The notes beneath the pieces are model-generated. The model saw nothing but the letters and a program-made list of their open reading frames with translations. It was not told where the DNA came from and ran no database searches. A stretch of DNA of 41,032 nucleotides from a virus. Position numbers and translations under genes: made by a program. Location of the stretch: positions 1 through 41,032 of IMG/VR virus record IMGVR_UViG_3300045988_116178. One strand, 5' to 3'. This document shows positions 3,217 to 38,873 of this stretch, piece after piece; the first letter of the stretch is position 1; the number at the start of each line of letters is the position of its first letter.

Positions 3217-4047
3217 ATGACAAAACAAACCAGCACTCCGGGATACTACACGATCCCAGAACTAACAGACAAAGACCTAACCAGCCTCAAGTACCCCGTA
3301 CACGTCGCCAAGGTAACATCCCCTCACATCGTAACGCTTTACGCCGAAGGTAGTCACCTTGCCATGTCAAGCATGGTGCCGGATAGTGTGGACTTCGACC
3401 TGATTAAACAGTTCTGTTTGTTGTCCCGGCAAGAAGAACAACTCCTATACGACTTTTGCAAGAAGCATAATGTTAGCGTGTTGTGTGAAGTACGCGCACC
3501 AGAATATAATCTCATGCGCTGGCAGAAATCTGCTATCAAGCCGCTTCTCGTATGCCACAACTACGACGGCAGGACCGCTGATCCTAGACTAATGGTCACA
3601 CTTCACTCAGCATACTCACTAAGATTCAACAGATGGGCAACCATCAGCAGCGATACCCGTACCGTAACAGAGAACGTTAGCCTTAGTCTTGCTATCGACC
3701 TAGCCAAGCAAGAGACGGACACCCCCGGTATCCTTATCAAAGACAAAACGGGGAAAACGTATCGCGTGGACAGTGAAGAATGGCAGTGTCGCAACAAGCT
3801 CCTATGGGACTTGTCTGAGGACTTGCGGGAAGGCCGCTTACGTAGGCTCACTTACCCGCGCCTAGACGAAAGGGAAGAATACTACCGGGATCGCATGCGG
3901 AAAACGCTAGAGGAACGCCCGCAAGTATGGCAAGACCTGCAAGAAGGTCGCACTCCACTATGGGCAGTATTCCACGCCTTGCGGGAAGGTCACGGTACGT
4001 ATGATACGCATAAGCTGATGGAGAAAATGTACCCCGACCTAGAATAA
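3217..4047 (+). CDS. Hypothetical protein (last gene of the rightward arm)
   Basis: ATG at 3217 with a GGAAGGA RBS about 12 nt upstream. The ORF-track start at 3109 lies in the regulatory gap. Confidence 0.7.
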   Translation: MTKQTSTPGYYTIPELTDKDLTSLKYPVHVAKVTSPHIVTLYAEGSHLAMSSMVPDSVDFDLIKQFCLLSRQEEQLLYDFCKKHNVSVLCEVRAPEYNLMRWQKSAIKPLLVCHNYDGRTADPRLMVTLHSAYSLRFNRWATISSDTRTVTENVSLSLAIDLAKQETDTPGILIKDKTGKTYRVDSEEWQCRNKLLWDLSEDLREGRLRRLTYPRLDEREEYYRDRMRKTLEERPQVWQDLQEGRTPLWAVFHALREGHGTYDTHKLMEKMYPDLE

Positions 4048-31324: not shown

Positions 31325-31975
31325 TCAGTAAGAAGTTGCGGCGGGGCGGAGCACCGGCACCCCGGGCCCCCGCCGCTGTGTGGGAGCCGCAAACCGGACG
31401 GGCTATCTGTGGCTAGTTCCCATCCGTAAACACCGGCACCACAAGCCGCTCCCACTGGACGTGTTTCCTCTCAACAGGGGACTCTCAATCCCCAAACCTT
31501 AAAAGACAAGTAAAGCATAAATAAAGCAAGGTAAAAGAAACGGTAACGCGATACCCTATTCCAGATACCGCGCTACCGCGTGTGAGAATCCAAACCAGAC
31601 GAACCTCACTAAAAACAGTCCATCCCTAAACGCCAACCACATAGGGCGTTCTCACAGAGAGCGTTTGCTATCCTGCTTGCCAGAACCACAACACAGTCCT
31701 TTACCATCAAGACAGGCAACAGTTCTAGCCGATATTAAATTATCACACTAGCCACACCCAGAAAGGCGTAGCCCCCACAAAATGACGGCACCAACCACAC
31801 ACATGAAACAACACGTGCCGCCCTTCCCCAAAGAACCAAAGAACCTTGGGGGACTTGGCAACAGCCACCCAAACAGGCGCGTTCACCACACTTAAACCCA
31901 GTCCACTCTCTCGCCGCCGGAAGCAGCGAGAGGCGGTCTGGTGAGGCCCCCTAAACCCGGGCGGGGAACCCCCTG

Positions 31976-32059
31976 TACTCACAGAGGGAGTCGAACCCTC
32001 ACAGCCACAAGGCCAGCAGATTTTGAGTCTGCCATGTCTACCAATTCCATCATGTGAGC
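31976..32059 (-). tRNA. tRNA-Leu (anticodon CAA), class II with a long variable arm
   Basis: Hand-folded cloverleaf. Acceptor GCTCACA/TGTGAGT (one G-U pair). D arm ATG-GAATTGGTAGA-CAT. Anticodon arm GCAGA-CTCAAAA-TCTGC. 15-nt variable arm. T arm GAGGG-TTCGACT-CCCTC. Discriminator A. No encoded CCA. Confidence 0.85.
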
Positions 32060-33231: not shown

Positions 33232-33840
33232 AAACACGCGCTCCTGTCGTTTGAGTCCCGTAGGAGGGCCAGCAGCGTTGCTGACAGCCACATCCTGACA
33301 TTGCGCGCCCCAGCAAGAAAAAACGCGCTAAGCGGCCGGAGAGAACCGAGAAAACAGGGAAAGGAATAAGCCGTTCCCCCGCGCAACCCCACACCAACGG
33401 TTGCGAGTCTCAATCAACCCCCCTACGGGCCATCTTATGCGCCCGGTAAAGTCCACACGCTCTAGCAGCAGTGTGATCGAACAACCCATACCACACAGGC
33501 AATGGGAGCATATTATTTAACCCGAACGCAAGAATCATTAAAACCAATTTTCTAACACCATAAAGTTCGCGAATATGGTTCGCGCACCCGCGAAGCGGAA
33601 CCGTACAATCGCGAAAGGAAAAAAGATAGCGAAAGAAAAAAGAACAAAAACAATAATTAAAAACATATAAGTTCGCGCAGATGAATTATGCACGGCGAAG
33701 CCGAAGCATACACATCTCGCGCGCTATCGCGCACTCAAAAATTCCTAAGGAGAAAAGGGTTGTGAGCTTAGAAACGGACACCGAAGGTGTCTGTTTCGCT
33801 TGCGAACAACCTAAAGCCGGACTTTAAAAGAAAGTAACAA

Positions 33841-34020
33841 AGAAAATAATAATAATATTTAATATAATATATTCTAAATGTTTACTTTAAGTAAAACACT
33901 CATGTTAATGTTAATGTTTTACTTTTAGTAATTATTATTAGAAATAATACTGTTATATTCTAACATTAATTCCTAATGTTTAATGTTAATAATAATTATT
34001 TATTTATATTTAGTTTTAGT
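33841..34020. other. Extreme AT-rich block (candidate DNA unwinding element)
   Basis: Hand count gives 24 G/C in 180 nt (about 13% GC). No ORF on any frame. Contains AT palindromes such as aataattatt. Confidence 0.8.
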
Positions 34021-34099
34021 GTTAGAACTTAATGTTTAACATTAGGTTCTAAGTTTTTATCCCTCTACTAATAAGTTTGGATTTGAGTAAGTACCTAAA

Positions 34100-34420
34100 A
34101 TGGGGTTTTGTGACTAAGGTCACTAAACTAGTATTAGAACTAACCTCTAAGCACTAACGTTAGGGACTTTAGTCCCTAGACTAACTACTAAAAGCATGTT
34201 AATAACACTAGCGCTAACACTAGTGTTTAACACTAGATAGTAAACTAAGAGTAAAGTATATTTATAACACTTAGAGTATAAATATATATAACACTAAACA
34301 CTAACACTTAGTGTTAACACTTAACATTAAGTTAACATTAGTACTTAAATATAAAAGTTAGAATATAAATATATATAACACTAACACTAAAGATAACATT
34401 AAGTATTAACACTTAGAGAG
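34100..34420. repeat. Array of TAACA(C/T)T(A/T)AG-type short repeats and palindromes (iteron-like)
   Basis: TAACACTAG at 34203, 34215 and 34228. At least a dozen related copies. 27-nt direct repeat at 34271-34297 and 34358-34384 (26/27 identical). Palindrome aacactagtgtt at 34216-34227. Confidence 0.75.
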
Positions 34421-34536
34421 AAGCTAAGGCTTCTCTCTTCTCTTCTCTCTTTGCTCTCTCTTCTCTCTTTCTTTCTTTATGTTACTTTCTTTCTTTCTCT
34501 CTTCTCTCTCATTTCTCTCTTCTCTTCTCTCTTCTT
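34415..34536 (+). repeat. 10-bp hairpin leading into a 107-nt polypyrimidine (CT) tract
   Basis: agagagaagc (34415-34424) pairs with gcttctctct (34429-34438). Positions 34430-34536 contain only 5 purines (34453, 34479, 34481, 34484, 34511). Confidence 0.9.
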
Positions 34537-35309
34537 AGCCCGGTTAGCCCGGCCCCCGCCGGGCGCAAAACCTGCACCCCACACAAGCCCACAAACCCTC
34601 ACGCAGCCGTTAAGGGGTCTAGAAGGCGATCTGAGCCACTTTCGGCCCGAACCTGCCCACACATGCCACCCCACCCCTGAAAGGCCGTTAGAGACGCTTA
34701 CAGAGCGTTCTACGCCCACGGCCCGCGCAGGCAGGCAGCGAGCATCCGCGAGCGCCACCCAAACCAACCCCACACCCACGCGACCATAGGATCACGCCGT
34801 GCGCCCTATGCTCCTAACAGCTAACACCAAAACTAACACGAGTTAGTAGCCCCTCTAACAGCCTTTCACACCCAGCCTAGACATGGACACACAAACATAC
34901 ATAAAAGCCCGCCAGAACACCATACAGACAATCCAGCACCAGAACCAACAACCCGGCACCCCCACGCGCCCGCGAGCGCCCCCTGCCCACAACGCACACA
35001 CAACGCAACACACCCTTAGCCGACACGAGCACCCCACACCCAGCGCCCACACCAGCACCGAACACGCATAAACTCTCACCCAAAAAAGTCTGGAAATGCC
35101 GGCGAGTTTTTTTGCTAAGACGTTGCGGCGAAGGGGGTTTTGGGTGGTTTTGGGTGTATGCCCCGGTGTTTTTGTCAAGTGGGTTGTGTGTGTTTTGGGT
35201 GTGGGGTTGGTCTCTTTTTTGTGGTTTGTGCTTGGCTTGGTTTGTGTATTTTTATTCGTGTTTGTTTATGGTTATGTTGGTAGTGGTTTGGTATTGTGTT
35301 GGTAAACGT

Positions 35310-35469
35310 TTTGTGTTTGTCAAGTTGTTTCATTATGTGAGGTGGCTTTGCTTTGTTTGGTTGGTTGTGGTATTGTCGCGCGCTTTGTTGCTCATGGTTT
35401 TTTGTGTTTGTCAAGTGTGTTCATATTCTGAGACGGGCTTGCTAGATCACTTTGGTTTGTGTTTGTCAA
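35310..35469 (+). repeat. Three copies of the 14-mer TTTGTGTTTGTCAA, each with a conserved downstream CAYTAT box
   Basis: Exact copies at 35310-35323, 35401-35414 and 35456-35469, plus a degenerate copy at 35167-35179. Downstream boxes are CATTAT, CATATT and CACTAT, 8-9 nt after each copy. Confidence 0.85.
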
Positions 35470-35570
35470 TAGCATCTCACTATGTGAACGTGGTTTGCGT
35501 TTTTGGGTTTGTTGTGTTATGATGCGCTCTTTTTGTTTTTGTGATGTTGGTTACATTTGCTTTGCGTGTG

Positions 35571-35599
35571 TTGACATTCGTTTTTGGTTGTGGTATTCA
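35571..35599 (+). promoter_or_regulatory. Putative early promoter TTGACA-17-TATTCA with TG extension
   Basis: TTGACA at 35571-35576, a 17-nt spacer, and tggTATTCA ending at 35599. Confidence 0.6.
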
Positions 35600-35632
35600 C
35601 GCGCGCGCGCGTTTAATAATAAGGTATAGGCG

Positions 35633-35648
35633 TGTGACCTAGTTCACA
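35633..35648. promoter_or_regulatory. Perfect TGTGA-N6-TCACA palindrome (CRP/GlxR-type site); also a hairpin plus T5
   Basis: TGTGACCTAGTTCACA. The flanking cg/cg extend the stem to 7 bp, followed by TTTTT at 35651-35655. Confidence 0.5.
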
Positions 35649-35653
35649 CGTTT

Positions 35654-35685
35654 TTGACTTGACTAGGCGAGCAGACTGATATACT
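35654..35685 (+). promoter_or_regulatory. Possible promoter: overlapping TTGACT boxes plus TATACT
   Basis: TTGACT at 35654-35659 and 35659-35664, and TATACT at 35680-35685. Spacers of 20 or 15 nt are both non-optimal. Confidence 0.4.
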
Positions 35686-35739
35686 CTATATATGTCAGCA
35701 AGGGACGGGCCCTACTGACCGGATAGAGAGAGTGTGAAA

Positions 35740-36110: not shown

Positions 36111-36162
36111 TTCCCCGCCTTAATGGCAAGTTTTGATGTTGGTTCGATCCCATCGCGGGGAA
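36111..36162 (+). other. tRNA-like minihelix element E1 (acceptor stem plus canonical T arm, no anticodon arm)
   Basis: ttccccgc (36111-36118) pairs with gcggggaa (36155-36162). The T arm gttgg-TTCGATC-ccatc (36138-36154) abuts the 3' acceptor strand. A mini arm ctt-aatggc-aag is also present. Confidence 0.4.
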
Positions 36163-36203
36163 CGATGGCTCAGAGAATGTGAGCTAACACACAATAGAAT
36201 AAC

Positions 36204-36232
36204 TTGACAAGTCGAAACTGTTGAGTTATTCT
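36204..36232 (+). promoter_or_regulatory. Putative promoter TTGACA-17-TATTCT
   Basis: TTGACA at 36204-36209, exact 17-nt spacer, TATTCT at 36227-36232. Embedded in the 9-bp inverted repeat agaataact/agttattct. Confidence 0.65.
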
Positions 36233-36284
36233 TAATACATGAGCTAATCAGTGTGGTTAGCTACTGGATATCTCAGTTAGGGAG

Positions 36285-36722
36285 ATGTTGAAATTGGCAC
36301 GACAGAGTGACATTATGGACAAGGCCGTTTGCGACTTCGTACGACGTTTTGAGAATGAGGGAATTATTCAAGGCGTGAAGCGATGCGGAATGAATTTGGA
36401 CGTTTACGCACCTACCCCTTGCGCAGCGCTTGAGTGTGGCGTTTTGGTTATGGACAGTTACGAGACGCCTATTGCCCGCGTGAACCTTGGTGAGCGTGAT
36501 GAAAACGGATACTGCAAGGTCGAACTGTCTGCATACTATTACAATTACAGCGTTACGACTTCTCGCCACTTGACCTACTTCCTTAGTGCGTTGCGTAAGG
36601 CGGGCGTTATCGGGATGAATGTTTTTGAGCGTCGCGCCAAGCGTTACGATGTTGAGCAGCGCGCTATTGAAGCGCTGCGCGCCAACGGTGACAACCGCTA
36701 TACTACGTGGTTCACACTCTGA
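36285..36722 (+). CDS. Hypothetical early protein
   Basis: 145-aa ORF. Start uncertain: the ATG at 36285 abuts GGGAG, and the ATG at 36315 is an alternative. Confidence 0.7.
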   Translation: MLKLARQSDIMDKAVCDFVRRFENEGIIQGVKRCGMNLDVYAPTPCAALECGVLVMDSYETPIARVNLGERDENGYCKVELSAYYYNYSVTTSRHLTYFLSALRKAGVIGMNVFERRAKRYDVEQRAIEALRANGDNRYTTWFTL

Positions 36723-36734
36723 TCTTATTGGTTA

Positions 36735-36793
36735 TCCCGCGTTTGATAACCTACCTGAAAAATGGTGGCTTGGGTTTAATTCCCAAGGCGGGA
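36735..36793 (+). other. tRNA-like element E2 (related to E1)
   Basis: tcccgc (36735-36740) pairs with gcggga (36788-36793). The hairpin cttggg-tttaatt-cccaag (36769-36787) abuts the 3' strand. Shares GCGGG(G)AACGAT and the downstream CTTGACAA with E1. Confidence 0.3.
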
Positions 36794-36812
36794 ACGATCA
36801 CACAAAAAAGAC

Positions 36813-36841
36813 TTGACAACCTACAGTAGACACAGTAAACT
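36813..36841 (+). promoter_or_regulatory. Putative promoter TTGACA-17-TAAACT
   Basis: TTGACA at 36813-36818, exact 17-nt spacer, TAAACT at 36836-36841. Confidence 0.65.
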
Positions 36842-36913
36842 TATAGGCATAAGGGAACAGCGAATTAAGGCAAACGGCCTTATCCCTTACATTCACAGAA
36901 AGACGAAAGACAA

Positions 36914-37402
36914 ATGAGCTTCAAGACATTCACCGAAGAACAAACCAAGGAAGCCCAAACATTCATTGACGAATACAAGGCGACACTCTATAAAGCGTTT
37001 GAGTACATTCTTGAAAATTGGTACGATTACGACGCGGGAGACCTGAAGCCATTCCTAACCGACTACGCAGCGGAGGACGTGGCAGATGTGATCTATGAAG
37101 AAGCGGAACAATTTACCCAAGAGTGGCACATTCCCGAAACGGTAGCCGACTACCTAGCTCACACGAATTTTGGGCTCTGCGGCTCAACGCCTTTCGACTG
37201 GCTAGTTGAGGCAGCATTAGACTCAGAGAATGAAGAAGAGATGAACGACGCGGTGGCGCGCTGCATCCTGTGGGGATGCATGGCAACACAGGTTATTGAG
37301 GACTTTCTAACGAATGTTACCGTGACCATCTACGACATGAACGCTGAAATTGGCCGTGAATATGCAGAAGGATGGGGGGTAGCTGTAAAGCTGTTCGCAT
37401 GA
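36914..37402 (+). CDS. Hypothetical acidic early protein
   Basis: 162-aa ORF, visibly Asp/Glu-rich. Confidence 0.8.
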   Translation: MSFKTFTEEQTKEAQTFIDEYKATLYKAFEYILENWYDYDAGDLKPFLTDYAAEDVADVIYEEAEQFTQEWHIPETVADYLAHTNFGLCGSTPFDWLVEAALDSENEEEMNDAVARCILWGCMATQVIEDFLTNVTVTIYDMNAEIGREYAEGWGVAVKLFA

Positions 37403-37411
37403 CATAGACGC

Positions 37412-37450
37412 GGTTAGCCCGTGCAGATCAGTTTCTCACACGGGCTAACC
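37412..37450 (+). promoter_or_regulatory. Perfect 12-bp stem, 15-nt loop intergenic hairpin
   Basis: ggttagcccgtg (37412-37423) pairs with cacgggctaacc (37439-37450). No U-tract follows. Confidence 0.45.
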
Positions 37451-37500: not shown

Positions 37501-37995
37501 ATGGGAACTAACAGCAAGACATATGCAGACTACATTGAAGAACGCGATAAGCTGATTGATCTAGCGTTAGGCGCATTGGACACCGACAGCCTACCTGAGA
37601 TTAACGATCAGTTAATTGAGCTCGCTAACCAAGCTATCGCAGCTGGGTATGGTGATCGTATTGAAGCAGACCGAGACTACATCCCAACACAGATCACAAT
37701 ACACGCATCTGTTGAAGATGCAGTAAGGGCCTATGTGAAAGCGGGAGAGACCGGCAACATTTACCACGATAAGACTCTGGACATCTACATATTGGACTTG
37801 TCAGACCGGGACTTGCAGGGGTGGCTAGCCTACTTTGGACTCACGCTATGGGGAGACGCGGAACAGCCTAACGATGTCGTAGTTAACATGATTAACGCTA
37901 TTGGCAGCCTTGGGACCATCCCCGAAGCTGAAGACTATCTAGACCTGTCCCGTATTGACGTGGTTAACGCTAAGCGCTTGACAATTGAGGACTGA
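37501..37995 (+). CDS. Hypothetical acidic early protein
   Basis: 164-aa ORF with a GAGGA RBS inside a 19-nt leader shared with gene 38268. Confidence 0.8.
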   Translation: MGTNSKTYADYIEERDKLIDLALGALDTDSLPEINDQLIELANQAIAAGYGDRIEADRDYIPTQITIHASVEDAVRAYVKAGETGNIYHDKTLDIYILDLSDRDLQGWLAYFGLTLWGDAEQPNDVVVNMINAIGSLGTIPEAEDYLDLSRIDVVNAKRLTIED

Positions 37996-38001
37996 GCTAT
38001 T

Positions 38002-38178
38002 ATGGCAACATTCATGCAACTATTGGAAATACTGTTAGCTTTCATCTTCTGGCTATTGAACTTCCTGAGAATCGGACTCATTGGAATTCTGTTCGCTATG
38101 CCAATTAGCCTAGCAACAGCCTGGTTCCTAGCGAAACACCCGAACGCTAACCCGTTTGACAACCATAAGCAATACTGA
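38002..38178 (+). CDS. 58-aa two-helix membrane protein (below the ORF-track cutoff)
   Basis: ATG at 38002 lies about 11 nt after GAGGA. Translation MATFMQLLEILLAFIFWLLNFLRIGLIGILFAMPISLATAWFLAKHPNANPFDNHKQY. Confidence 0.5.
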   Translation: MATFMQLLEILLAFIFWLLNFLRIGLIGILFAMPISLATAWFLAKHPNANPFDNHKQY

Positions 38179-38184
38179 TAAGCT
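38156..38184 (+). promoter_or_regulatory. Putative promoter TTGACA-17-TAAGCT
   Basis: TTGACA at 38156-38161, exact 17-nt spacer, TAAGCT at 38179-38184. Overlaps the end of the small ORF. Confidence 0.5.
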
Positions 38185-38186
38185 AA

Positions 38187-38240
38187 GACCATAGGCGACA
38201 TTGAAGAATAGGAAACATTGAAATACTGTCGCCTATGGTC
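38187..38240 (+). promoter_or_regulatory. Perfect 14-bp stem, 26-nt loop hairpin at the predicted 5' end of the transcript
   Basis: gaccataggcgaca (38187-38200) pairs with tgtcgcctatggtc (38227-38240). Confidence 0.5.
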
Positions 38241-38267
38241 ACTCACAAAGAATTGAGGAACACAAAA

Positions 38268-38873
38268 ATGGAAACCCCCGAAACCACTGACTACCTGATC
38301 ATTGCACACATGCAAGTCCCCATCAACACGCGATACAACCTTAAACCCATGTCAATGTTCATCCCCAAGGATATGCACGTTAGCGAGTTTATCCAGTACG
38401 TTTGTGAGGATTCATACACGTTTGACGAGTTGGAAGATCTGGCTATGCCTGATGCTGCTGAGAAGCGACGCGACTACGGGCTCTCATACGATCGTATCAT
38501 GTTTGTGCTGACAGCTGGACGGTTTATTGAACAACTCGCACAAACGTTGCCAGAAGTCCCCGCATTGACAGAGTACGCTTTGAAGGAAATGGGGATCACC
38601 TTGGAGCGCGTTCCGTTCCTGATTACCAAGGATACAGAATTTATCTTTGAGGAAGACGGAGTAATGACCACTGAAGTGTATGCTAACTTCATTTTCGGTT
38701 GGTATACTGAGTGCCTGTCATGCCTGATGCAGGATTACAGTATTGCGACTTCCTATCTTCCTACTGGCGACTATGGCCTGTTGGAAATGATGAATCTGTT
38801 CCTGTGGGAGCGTGGAATGTGGGAGATGGGCGAGAAATTGCAGCTTCCCAAGTTCAATATTCGATTCAACTGA
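38268..38873 (+). CDS. Hypothetical acidic early protein
   Basis: The ATG at 38268 is preceded by the same 19-nt leader (aagaattgaggaacacaaa) as gene 37501. The ORF-track start at 38235 lies inside the hairpin. Confidence 0.8.
   Translation: METPETTDYLIIAHMQVPINTRYNLKPMSMFIPKDMHVSEFIQYVCEDSYTFDELEDLAMPDAAEKRRDYGLSYDRIMFVLTAGRFIEQLAQTLPEVPALTEYALKEMGITLERVPFLITKDTEFIFEEDGVMTTEVYANFIFGWYTECLSCLMQDYSIATSYLPTGDYGLLEMMNLFLWERGMWEMGEKLQLPKFNIRFN

Follow-up and report, generated by a model that had tools for sequence, protein, structure and literature searches.

tRNA-like RNA elements between early genes of an uncultured tailed phage: members of a conserved family

The locus and its two elements

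We analysed a stretch of viral DNA of 41,032 nucleotides (IMG/VR record IMGVR_UViG_3300045988_116178; hereafter the window), which is an apparently complete tailed-phage genome of about 41 kb. Two elements, E1 and E2, lie on its plus strand on either side of a gene for a DUF8033-like protein (36285-36722). A first-pass annotation had described both as acceptor-T minihelices just upstream of promoters. Our analysis indicates that they are tRNA-like structures (TLS), and that they are members of a family of tRNA-like RNA elements that is conserved and, apparently, undescribed. Positions within them are given in tRNA-style numbering (−1, 73, G53:C61 and so on). The plus strand carries small open reading frames (ORFs) of unassigned function, which run from 35.7 kb past the window end and on to 4.0 kb. 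Pfam and PHROGs scans of the proteins neighbouring E1 and E2 assigned no function to them.

E1 was defined by its sequence, by a covariance model (R1) and by covariation. Its parts, all on the plus strand, are the following.

36111-36162: E1, a TLS without an anticodon arm
T36111: position −1 (U−1 in the RNA)
36112-36118 and 36155-36161: acceptor stem of 7 bp, TCCCCGC / GCGGGGA
36119-36130: D-like arm of 3 bp, CTT-AATGGC-AAG, with GG at 36125-36126
36131-36137: single-stranded linker of 7 nt
36138-36154: T arm GTTGG-TTCGATC-CCATC, 5-bp stem, loop TTCGATC at 36143-36149
A36162: discriminator, followed by CGAT

The D-like arm directly adjoins the 5' strand of the acceptor. The D-like arm, the absence of an anticodon arm and the canonical T loop with its G53:C61-type closure had been noticed before and were found again at the same positions. 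The acceptor had been counted as 8 bp; however, the eighth pair (−1:73) pairs in only 74% of the homologues, so the arrangement is a 7-bp stem plus a discriminator, which is standard for tRNA. The term minihelix also says too little for E1, because the D-loop/T-loop elbow is kept. The T stem of the window copy contains a single T.T mismatch (36139/36153), at which relatives have U-A, C-G or U.G. Against model R1, E1 scored 73.8 bits on the plus strand and 18 bits on the minus strand.

E2 was recognised from its minimum free energy fold (z = −3.07), from an alignment of relatives (A4, below) and from a second model (R2, 87.8 bits). Its parts, also on the plus strand, are listed together with an alternative hairpin.

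36735-36794: E2, a compact four-arm cloverleaf TLS
36735-36740 and 36788-36793: acceptor of 6 bp, TCCCGC / GCGGGA
36741-36750: D-like arm GTT-TGAT-AAC, 3-bp stem and 4-nt loop
36751-36768: variable central arm CTACC-TGAAAAAT-GGTGG (RNA form CTACC-UGAAAAAU-GGUGG)
36769-36787: T arm CTTGGG-TTTAATT-CCCAAG, 6-bp stem
A36794: discriminator, followed by CGAT
36730-36751: alternative hairpin GGTTATC / GATAACC, overlapping the 5' strand of the acceptor and the D arm

RNAfold gave a four-way junction for E2. The acceptor and T-arm helices are present as the first-pass annotation had described them, but the D-like and central arms had been overlooked, and E2 is a full four-arm mimic rather than an acceptor-T minihelix. 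That E1 and E2 share the same ending, GGGAACGAT, was borne out. The competing hairpin can be formed in all 10 relatives, but its only changes are from U-A to U.G, with no double-sided changes.

Covariation, strand and spread of the family

A loose scan for acceptor plus T minihelices returned about 5 matches per shuffled genome. Because such single-sequence statistics are weak, comparative tests were used instead. The DUF8033 gene has 60 homologues, many of them on metagenomic contigs of 40-45 kb. An E1-type element lies upstream of the promoter of this gene in every relative, and an E2-type element stands right after its stop codon in most of them. E2 is absent from L004, L005, L016 and L031, in which the DUF8033 gene is followed directly by ArdA and then by an E1-type TLS.

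The stems of these copies differ by compensatory changes. The acceptor occurs as TCCCCGC/GCGGGGA, TCCCTAC/GTAGGGA, TCCCGGT/ACCGGGA and TCCCAGT/ACTGGGA, the D stem as CTT/AAG and GGT/GCC, and the T stem as GTTGG/CCAAC, GCAAG/CTTGC and TCTAG/CTAGG. The central arm of E2 varies as CTACC/GGTGG, CCACAC/GTGTGG, CTGCAC/GTGCAG and CTAGC/GCTAG, with loops of about 5-8 nt. Three alignments were evaluated against slid controls; for A5 and A6 the model guided the alignment, which biases them towards the structure.

A4, E2-type: 10 distinct sequences; 99.0% of cells paired; double-sided changes at 12 of 21 pairs; slid controls 32-52%
A5, E1-type, close group: 22 distinct sequences; 98.0% paired; double-sided changes at 12 of 16 pairs; slid controls 31-63%
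A6, E1-type, all: 57 distinct sequences from about 40 metagenomic phage contigs; 97.6% paired; double-sided changes at 13 of 16 pairs; slid controls 30-56%

The observed pairing was matched by none of 500 shuffles in each alignment. RNAalifold independently predicted the same pairs, and the compensations are visible in the raw sequences. This comparative evidence is decisive for E1 and E2 being real. A covariance model and a search of relatives had been suggested as a check in the first-pass annotation, and running it revealed double-sided changes in both types. We regard the tRNA-like structure and its conservation as very nearly certain.

The cells that are not Watson-Crick pairs comprise about 25 G.U when read on the plus strand, against 3 C.A. 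On the gene strand the covariance model gave 74-78 bits, as compared with 18-21 bits on the other, and all copies lie on the coding strand of the neighbouring genes. Thus, the selected object is an RNA in the sense of the early genes. The covariation and these gene-sense wobbles agree with the earlier proposal that the elements are tRNA-like RNA structures.

Several determinants of tRNA are retained. The G53:C61-equivalent pair is invariant in the close group, and in the wider set it is GC in 56 of 57 sequences and GU in 1. The T loop of the E1 type has the consensus TTCRAYY, and the D-loop GG is found in 23 of 23 close-group copies. In E2-type elements (loop TTTAATT), neither the GG nor the C56 equivalent is present, a joint loss that would be expected if the two are in contact as in the tRNA elbow. 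The acceptor and T stems stack coaxially to 12 bp in both elements (7 + 5 in E1, 6 + 6 in E2); an acceptor/T helix of this length is measured by the CCA-adding enzyme as well as by RNase P and RNase Z. The discriminator is A in 40 copies and G in 18 (n = 59). It is followed by C in 57/59 (+74), G in 48/59 (+75) and a purine in 59/59, that is by CGR and never by CCA. E1-type copies have a linker of 4-11 nt between the D and T arms in place of an anticodon arm. The central arm of E2-type copies, with a 5-6-bp stem, a loop of about 5-8 nt and no conserved sequence, is not the 5-bp/7-nt anticodon arm of tRNA. Variation is free in the D stem, the T stem and the inner pairs of the acceptor, and two family members have wholly different acceptor ends (GGCGCGGG and AGCGCGGC).

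We compared the elements with known RNA classes. In the window, ARAGORN called a single tRNA-Leu (31975-32059) and neither E1 nor E2; in the close relatives scanned it called no TLS, and the only TLS call was a cloverleaf variant in contig L052 (tRNA-Ala). Rfam searches of the window, at the gathering score and at E ≤ 10, placed no family on E1 or E2, and array copies of L052, L054 and L058 had no match at E ≤ 1; overall, Rfam returned only genuine tRNA-Leu genes and sub-threshold noise. Of the canonical tRNA features, E1 has the 12-bp stack, a TTCRANY loop with G53:C61 and the D-loop GG, and E2 lacks the GG and C56. A canonical tRNA gene was rejected, as tRNA models did not detect the elements and a standard anticodon arm is missing. 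A tmRNA tRNA-like domain was also rejected: position 3:70 is C:G, 4-11 nt separate the D and T arms, and ARAGORN found no tmRNA. An intrinsic-terminator scan gave nothing at E1, E2 or their downstream hairpins, and no T run lies downstream. The elements do resemble t-elements in being non-decoding tRNA-like folds on the sense strand between coding regions. Literature on phage tRNA-like punctuation yielded no description, which is not proof of novelty as its coverage was incomplete.

The family is dispersed. In many relatives, model R1 detected one more E1-type copy, which lies in a different intergenic region. A pattern scan of IMG/VR, independent of the neighbouring gene, returned 32 loci, of which R1 confirmed 26; about 21 of these belong to a different group of phage contigs, many of about 50 kb. 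A second pattern scan (gap N{28,42}) passes over typical 52-nt copies and gave mostly unrelated returns, but it uncovered L070 and some GC-rich TLS variants. Five contigs carry arrays of E1-type copies, each on one strand, with a TLS behind nearly every early gene.

L058: 8 copies
L070: 8 copies
L054: 7 copies
L052: 6 copies
L062: 5 copies

Within the array of L052, two cloverleaf-type TLS variants were observed (1247-1322 and 3222-3294), each with CGG or CUGG and then a hairpin behind it. ARAGORN takes the former for a tRNA-Ala(agc), and Rfam gives only a sub-threshold tRNA-Sec match there; the latter fills a gap between E1-type copies (at least one such gap).

The placement of the copies is highly regular. 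In each of the 66 distinct TLS, the first nucleotide lies 2-52 nt (median 13) past the stop codon of an ORF of at least 45 codons, and the next ORF starts at a median of 48 nt downstream (n = 66). Long ORF calls enclose only 3 of the 66. Downstream, 65/66 TLS have a stable hairpin that begins within 6 nt (shuffles, mean 21.4, maximum 26), and the mean folding energy of the 40 nt downstream was −12.2 kcal/mol, versus −6.3 kcal/mol in shuffles. A hairpin ending within 6 nt upstream was found for 43/66 TLS (shuffles, mean 29.8, maximum 35). The downstream hairpins are often topped by ...CC-AAGGY-GG...; CCAWGGYGG, taken as a hairpin marker, was not enriched across the window.

Related forms were observed in unrelated GC-rich viral contigs (L065, L066, L078 and L079, also L072 and L074), which contain TTCCC...GGGAACG elements. 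They have a canonical D arm (TAGCTCAACTTGGCAGAGC) and a T arm, and the anticodon arm is shrunk to CCC-GGC-GGG; ARAGORN made no call on any of them. These forms suggest that the TLS family descends from a tRNA gene and that its range may be wider than sampled here.

Homology between the window and a relative with 96% identity in the DUF8033 protein stops exactly after E2, at ...GGGAACGATCAC (the break lies at 36798 onward in the window and at 2117 onward in L001/L011). The TLS-bounded cassettes of the relatives differ, with 75-aa plus 64-aa genes, ArdA or a 208-aa gene.

Promoters, hairpins and genome setting

The features between and after the two elements, all on the plus strand, are the following.

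36163-36186: CGA(U) spacer and folded hairpin UGGCUCA-GAGAAUG-UGAGCUA (hairpin 36166-36186), immediately 3' of E1
36196-36232: promoter P2, −35 TTGACA at 36204-36209 and −10 TATTCT at 36227-36232, in a 14-bp inverted repeat
36238-36266: folded hairpin (core 36242-36262) at the predicted 5' end of the P2 transcript
36813-36841: promoter P3, TTGACA-N17-TAAACT, after E2 and specific to the window
36850-36889: folded hairpin (z = −2.6) at the predicted 5' end of the P3 transcript

The TTGACA promoters reported earlier at 36204 and 36813 were confirmed. However, their link with the elements is not general: most family members lead to a hairpin and the ribosome-binding site of the next gene without a promoter, and E2 is promoter-free in close relatives, which have a hairpin and another gene at the site of P3. 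P2 is conserved in all relatives of the 41-45 kb group. The inverted repeat around it (AGAATAACTTGACA...TGTTGAGTTATTCT, 36196-36232) covers both hexamers and is kept in relatives; its appearance is that of an operator or, in read-through transcripts, of an RNA hairpin. A third promoter of the same extended form (TTGACAA-N16-TANNNT) lies at 38156-38184, upstream of the gene 38235-38873. The window holds only 3 promoters of this form, versus 0.08 expected.

The hairpin downstream of E1, which corresponds to the one found behind TLS throughout the family, is kept in relatives, with compensatory changes in L010 and L004. The P2-proximal hairpin is comparable in stability to those behind each TLS, and it has compensatory variants in L008 and other relatives. 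The loop CC-AAGGY-GG occurs in the latter hairpin in close relatives, not in the window. From these positions we infer that early mRNAs may share a 5'-terminal hairpin cap, either after a transcription start or after a TLS. Hairpins at the P2 and P3 transcript starts as well as after TLS would be expected if the 3' edge of a TLS became the 5' end of an mRNA. A further hairpin (GGAUAUCUC...GGGAGAUGUU, 36267-36289) masks the Shine-Dalgarno sequence AGGGAG of the DUF8033 gene, whose real start is probably the TTG at 36294, because the relatives begin with MARQ. A very stable 12-bp hairpin with no TLS (37412-37450, z = −6.0) was observed between the genes 36914-37402 and 37501-37995; it may be another kind of intercistronic signal.

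The minus strand carries, from 4.2 to 33.3 kb, genes with SPP1-type portal, TerS, TerL, tail tube protein, endolysin-like, primase/helicase and exonuclease domains. TerL is closest (47%) to that of Streptomyces and Mycobacterium phages, a distant likeness. Several Pfam matches are actinophage families (L5/D29 gp49, VG15 and DUF5403), and the related contigs come from human metagenomes. For these reasons the host is probably an actinobacterium of the human microbiome. This is known by inference only, because the DUF8033 gene next to E1 and E2 has no relatives in 185,579 bacterial species genomes, and no prophage relatives were found. A blastn search of the E1/E2 region and of one TLS array against 50,697 phage records gave no match, and the distant likeness of TerL is the only one to cultured phages.

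The phage also encodes a tRNA-Leu(CAA) on the minus strand (31975-32059, called by ARAGORN). Its first pair is G1.U72, and CCA is not encoded, the 3' end being ...A followed by CAG; therefore, 3' ends without CCA are normal in this phage system. The 9-mer TTCCCCGCC, equal to the 5' strand of E1, occurs just downstream of this tRNA on the minus strand, probably by chance. A non-coding block of 2.4 kb (33300-35700) precedes the plus-strand early genes. It contains AT-rich TAACACT-type repeats (34202-34390) with periods of 87 nt and 13 nt and a CT-rich tract (34430-34535). A C/A-rich segment (34540-35090) then switches sharply to a G/T-rich one (35110-35600) with four GTTTGTCAAG motifs. The block may serve as an origin or terminus, or as a bank of promoters.

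Proposed punctuation of early transcripts and its alternatives

The explanation that we favour, with moderate confidence and on the basis of sequence comparison, is that E1 and E2 are sense-strand TLS that punctuate the early transcripts of the phage and are excised by RNase P and RNase Z. Among the roles offered in the first-pass annotation, punctuation that processes or stabilises mRNA fits best, given the arrays of 5-8 copies after successive genes and the flanking hairpins; the comparative data strengthen and widen it considerably beyond what the window by itself shows. The observations that stand behind it are those of structure, strand, conservation, arrays and flanking hairpins; the cleavages, the enzymes and the stabilising role would be as follows. 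Host RNase P would cut at the 5' edge of the TLS (36111/36112 in E1, 36734/36735 in E2), and RNase Z or another 3' endonuclease would cut past the discriminator (36162/36163 and 36794/36795). The upstream message would then end about 10-20 nt past its stop codon, in many relatives at a hairpin. A TLS of 52-60 nt would be freed, to which CCA may be added, and the downstream RNA would begin 2-4 nt before a stable hairpin that protects the new 5' end. In relatives with 5-8 TLS and no promoters between them, one polycistronic early RNA would thus be turned into monocistronic, hairpin-capped mRNAs. In the window, the TLS would mainly trim read-through transcripts, because each of them precedes its own promoter.

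Several observations weigh against this explanation. As both window TLS precede their own promoters, processing is not needed there to separate cistrons. Neither E1 nor E2 has a convincing upstream hairpin that could cap a 3' end, and the enrichment of upstream hairpins across the family is only modest. The fold of E1 alone is not superior to those of shuffled sequences (z = −0.3), and a T.T mismatch is present in its window copy. The acceptor end is U1:A72 instead of G1:C72, which is unusual for a good substrate of bacterial RNase P. Furthermore, UCCC...GGGA-R-C-G-R is conserved beyond what processing alone seems to need, which hints at another specific partner; ascertainment accounts for part of this conservation, as sequences of this kind were the basis of both the model and the scan patterns.

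Such a partner is central to a different explanation, in which the TLS, freed or embedded, is a functional early tRNA mimic in many copies that titrates or diverts a host factor reading the acceptor and T arm. That factor might be EF-Tu, a synthetase, the CCA-adding enzyme or a toxin of a defence system acting on tRNA 3' ends by modification or cleavage, and processing would be maturation only. It would agree with the strong conservation of the acceptor end and of CGR, with up to 8 copies per operon, with the retained elbow and with the early region, where relatives carry the anti-restriction gene ArdA. However, the inner acceptor, T stem and D stem are free to vary, two members have other acceptor ends, and a decoy would need no strict placement relative to stop codons, hairpins and ribosome-binding sites; moreover, we know of no candidate target. 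We consider this explanation rather unlikely as the primary one, though it is compatible with punctuation and does not exclude it. In a form that we hold slightly less likely still, the excised TLS would be a new class of phage 'half-tRNAs', modules of acceptor, T arm and elbow with a conserved UCCC...GGGA-R end, CCA-tailed and perhaps charged. Present in up to eight copies on each early transcript, they would saturate or misdirect a host system that reads acceptor ends, for instance a defence toxin directed at tRNA 3' ends, and so act as an RNA anti-defence device. The repeats might instead act on DNA, as recombination or module boundaries that shuffle early cassettes. T4-type phages have promoter-stem-loop cassettes that are comparable to this. 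Mosaic junctions do occur at TLS: homology is lost exactly after E2, different genes (75-aa, ArdA, 208-aa) follow the same TLS, and each inserted cassette brings its own TLS. However, recombination requires sequence identity, whereas pairing is what is conserved here, and the one-strand G.U wobbles and compensatory changes point to selection on RNA. A recombination role is thus improbable, and the cassette mosaicism is best seen as a side effect of dispersed repeats.

Punctuation has also to be weighed against termination, in which a TLS and its downstream hairpin would act as a terminator, pause or attenuator for host RNA polymerase. Every TLS lies at the 3' end of a gene, a stable GC-containing hairpin comes after each, and both window elements precede a promoter. 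However, no U tract follows the TLS or the hairpin, and a hairpin alone would be enough, so that the tRNA-specific T loop and D-loop GG are left unexplained. The array genes begin about 48 nt on and are promoter-free; therefore, efficient termination would silence them. We give this explanation very little weight. Least probable of all, to the point of being nearly dismissed, is a reading of the elements as tRNA genes in decay or as an attP core through which the phage integrates. The canonical T loop and tRNA-like acceptor stem would agree with it, and descent from a tRNA gene is suggested by the GC-rich viral contigs, in whose elements the D arm is canonical and the anticodon arm reduced. 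However, compensatory upkeep of all helices in diverged copies across about 40 contigs is purifying selection, and the lack of an anticodon arm is a conserved state, so the decay that the first-pass annotation had entertained does not hold. Its judgement that an attP role is unlikely was strengthened: none of the 42 window ORFs has an integrase or recombinase Pfam domain, prophage relatives were not found, and genomes carry several copies. In addition, the family consensus of the E1 3' half (22 positions with one N, from which T36139 of the window departs by one base) has no exact match in the 185,579 species genomes.

The favoured explanation has counterparts in known systems, of which the t-elements of plant mitochondria, the tRNA punctuation of animal mitochondria and the MALAT1/mascRNA module come closest in function, and within phages the RNase III sites of T7. 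Dunn and Studier reportedly described RNase III sites between the early genes of phage T7. There, too, structured RNA lies between consecutive early genes of a lytic phage, and a host endonuclease cuts polycistronic early RNA into stable individual mRNAs; however, the T7 sites are simple long hairpins recognised by RNase III and not tRNA-like. Ojala, Montoya and Attardi are said to have proposed in 1981 the tRNA punctuation of polycistronic transcripts in animal mitochondria. In mitochondria, L-shaped RNAs lie between the genes of one long transcript, a layout that the arrays of L058, L054 and L070 share, and their excision by RNase P and RNase Z makes the mRNAs. The mitochondrial marks are functional tRNAs, whereas the TLS have no usable anticodon arm and are apparently dedicated signals. 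That system has been reviewed (PMC3790967).

Forner et al. (2007, PMC1920247) found t-elements in plant mitochondria by a GGTTCRANYCC scan and considered them tRNA-like mRNA processing signals for RNase P and RNase Z. They share with the phage elements a non-decoding tRNA-like structure inside mRNA precursors and the T-arm motif GGTTCRANYCC. They adjoin mRNA 5' or 3' ends, and their cutting by RNase P and RNase Z, which frees a small t-element RNA, was proposed and partly shown, whereas cleavage of the phage elements is a prediction. Unlike the TLS, t-elements are organellar, scattered single copies with no obligatory cap hairpin, and there is no sequence relationship. The MALAT1 mascRNA and the NEAT1 element are tRNA-like elements at RNA 3' ends. 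A cut by RNase P makes the 3' end of the upstream RNA, RNase Z acts next, and CCA is added (PMC8457004). They, too, lie in a longer RNA, whose upstream end is guarded by an adjacent structure; however, they occur one each in eukaryotic nuclear lncRNAs (long non-coding RNAs), and the guard is a triple helix, not a hairpin.

With canonical tRNA (RF00005), the tmRNA tRNA-like domain and the YrlA/Y-RNA tRNA-like modules, the elements share a 7-bp acceptor, a 5-bp T stem, equivalents of T54-Psi55-C56-R57-A58 and the D-loop GG. Unlike them, E1 has no anticodon arm and E2 a variable one, and there is no G3.U70, mRNA-like domain or Ro-binding stem. Polycistronic mRNAs and tRNA-like substrates other than tRNA are known targets of RNase P, whose known bacterial and phage non-tRNA substrates are 4.5S RNA, tmRNA, C4 RNA, M3 RNA and some operon mRNAs (PMC11143913). 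None of these is a repeated tRNA mimic without an anticodon.

If the punctuation explanation is true, a group of lytic siphophages of human-associated metagenomes would arrange their early expression as mitochondria do, with a dedicated, non-decoding tRNA mimic behind each gene at which tRNA-end-processing enzymes of the host cut the transcript. This would be the first tRNA-punctuation system found in a phage or bacterial operon, within the literature covered, and, next to T7 RNase III sites and separate promoters for each gene, a third solution to one problem. Synthetic arrays with tRNA spacers, from which multiple guide RNAs are expressed, would have in it a natural counterpart. The compact module of about 52 nt, an elbow without the anticodon limb, would be of use for defining the minimal needs of RNase P, RNase Z, the CCA-adding enzyme and enzymes that modify the T loop. 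Because gene callers and tRNA finders miss TLS, similar signals may be widespread in uncultured phages.

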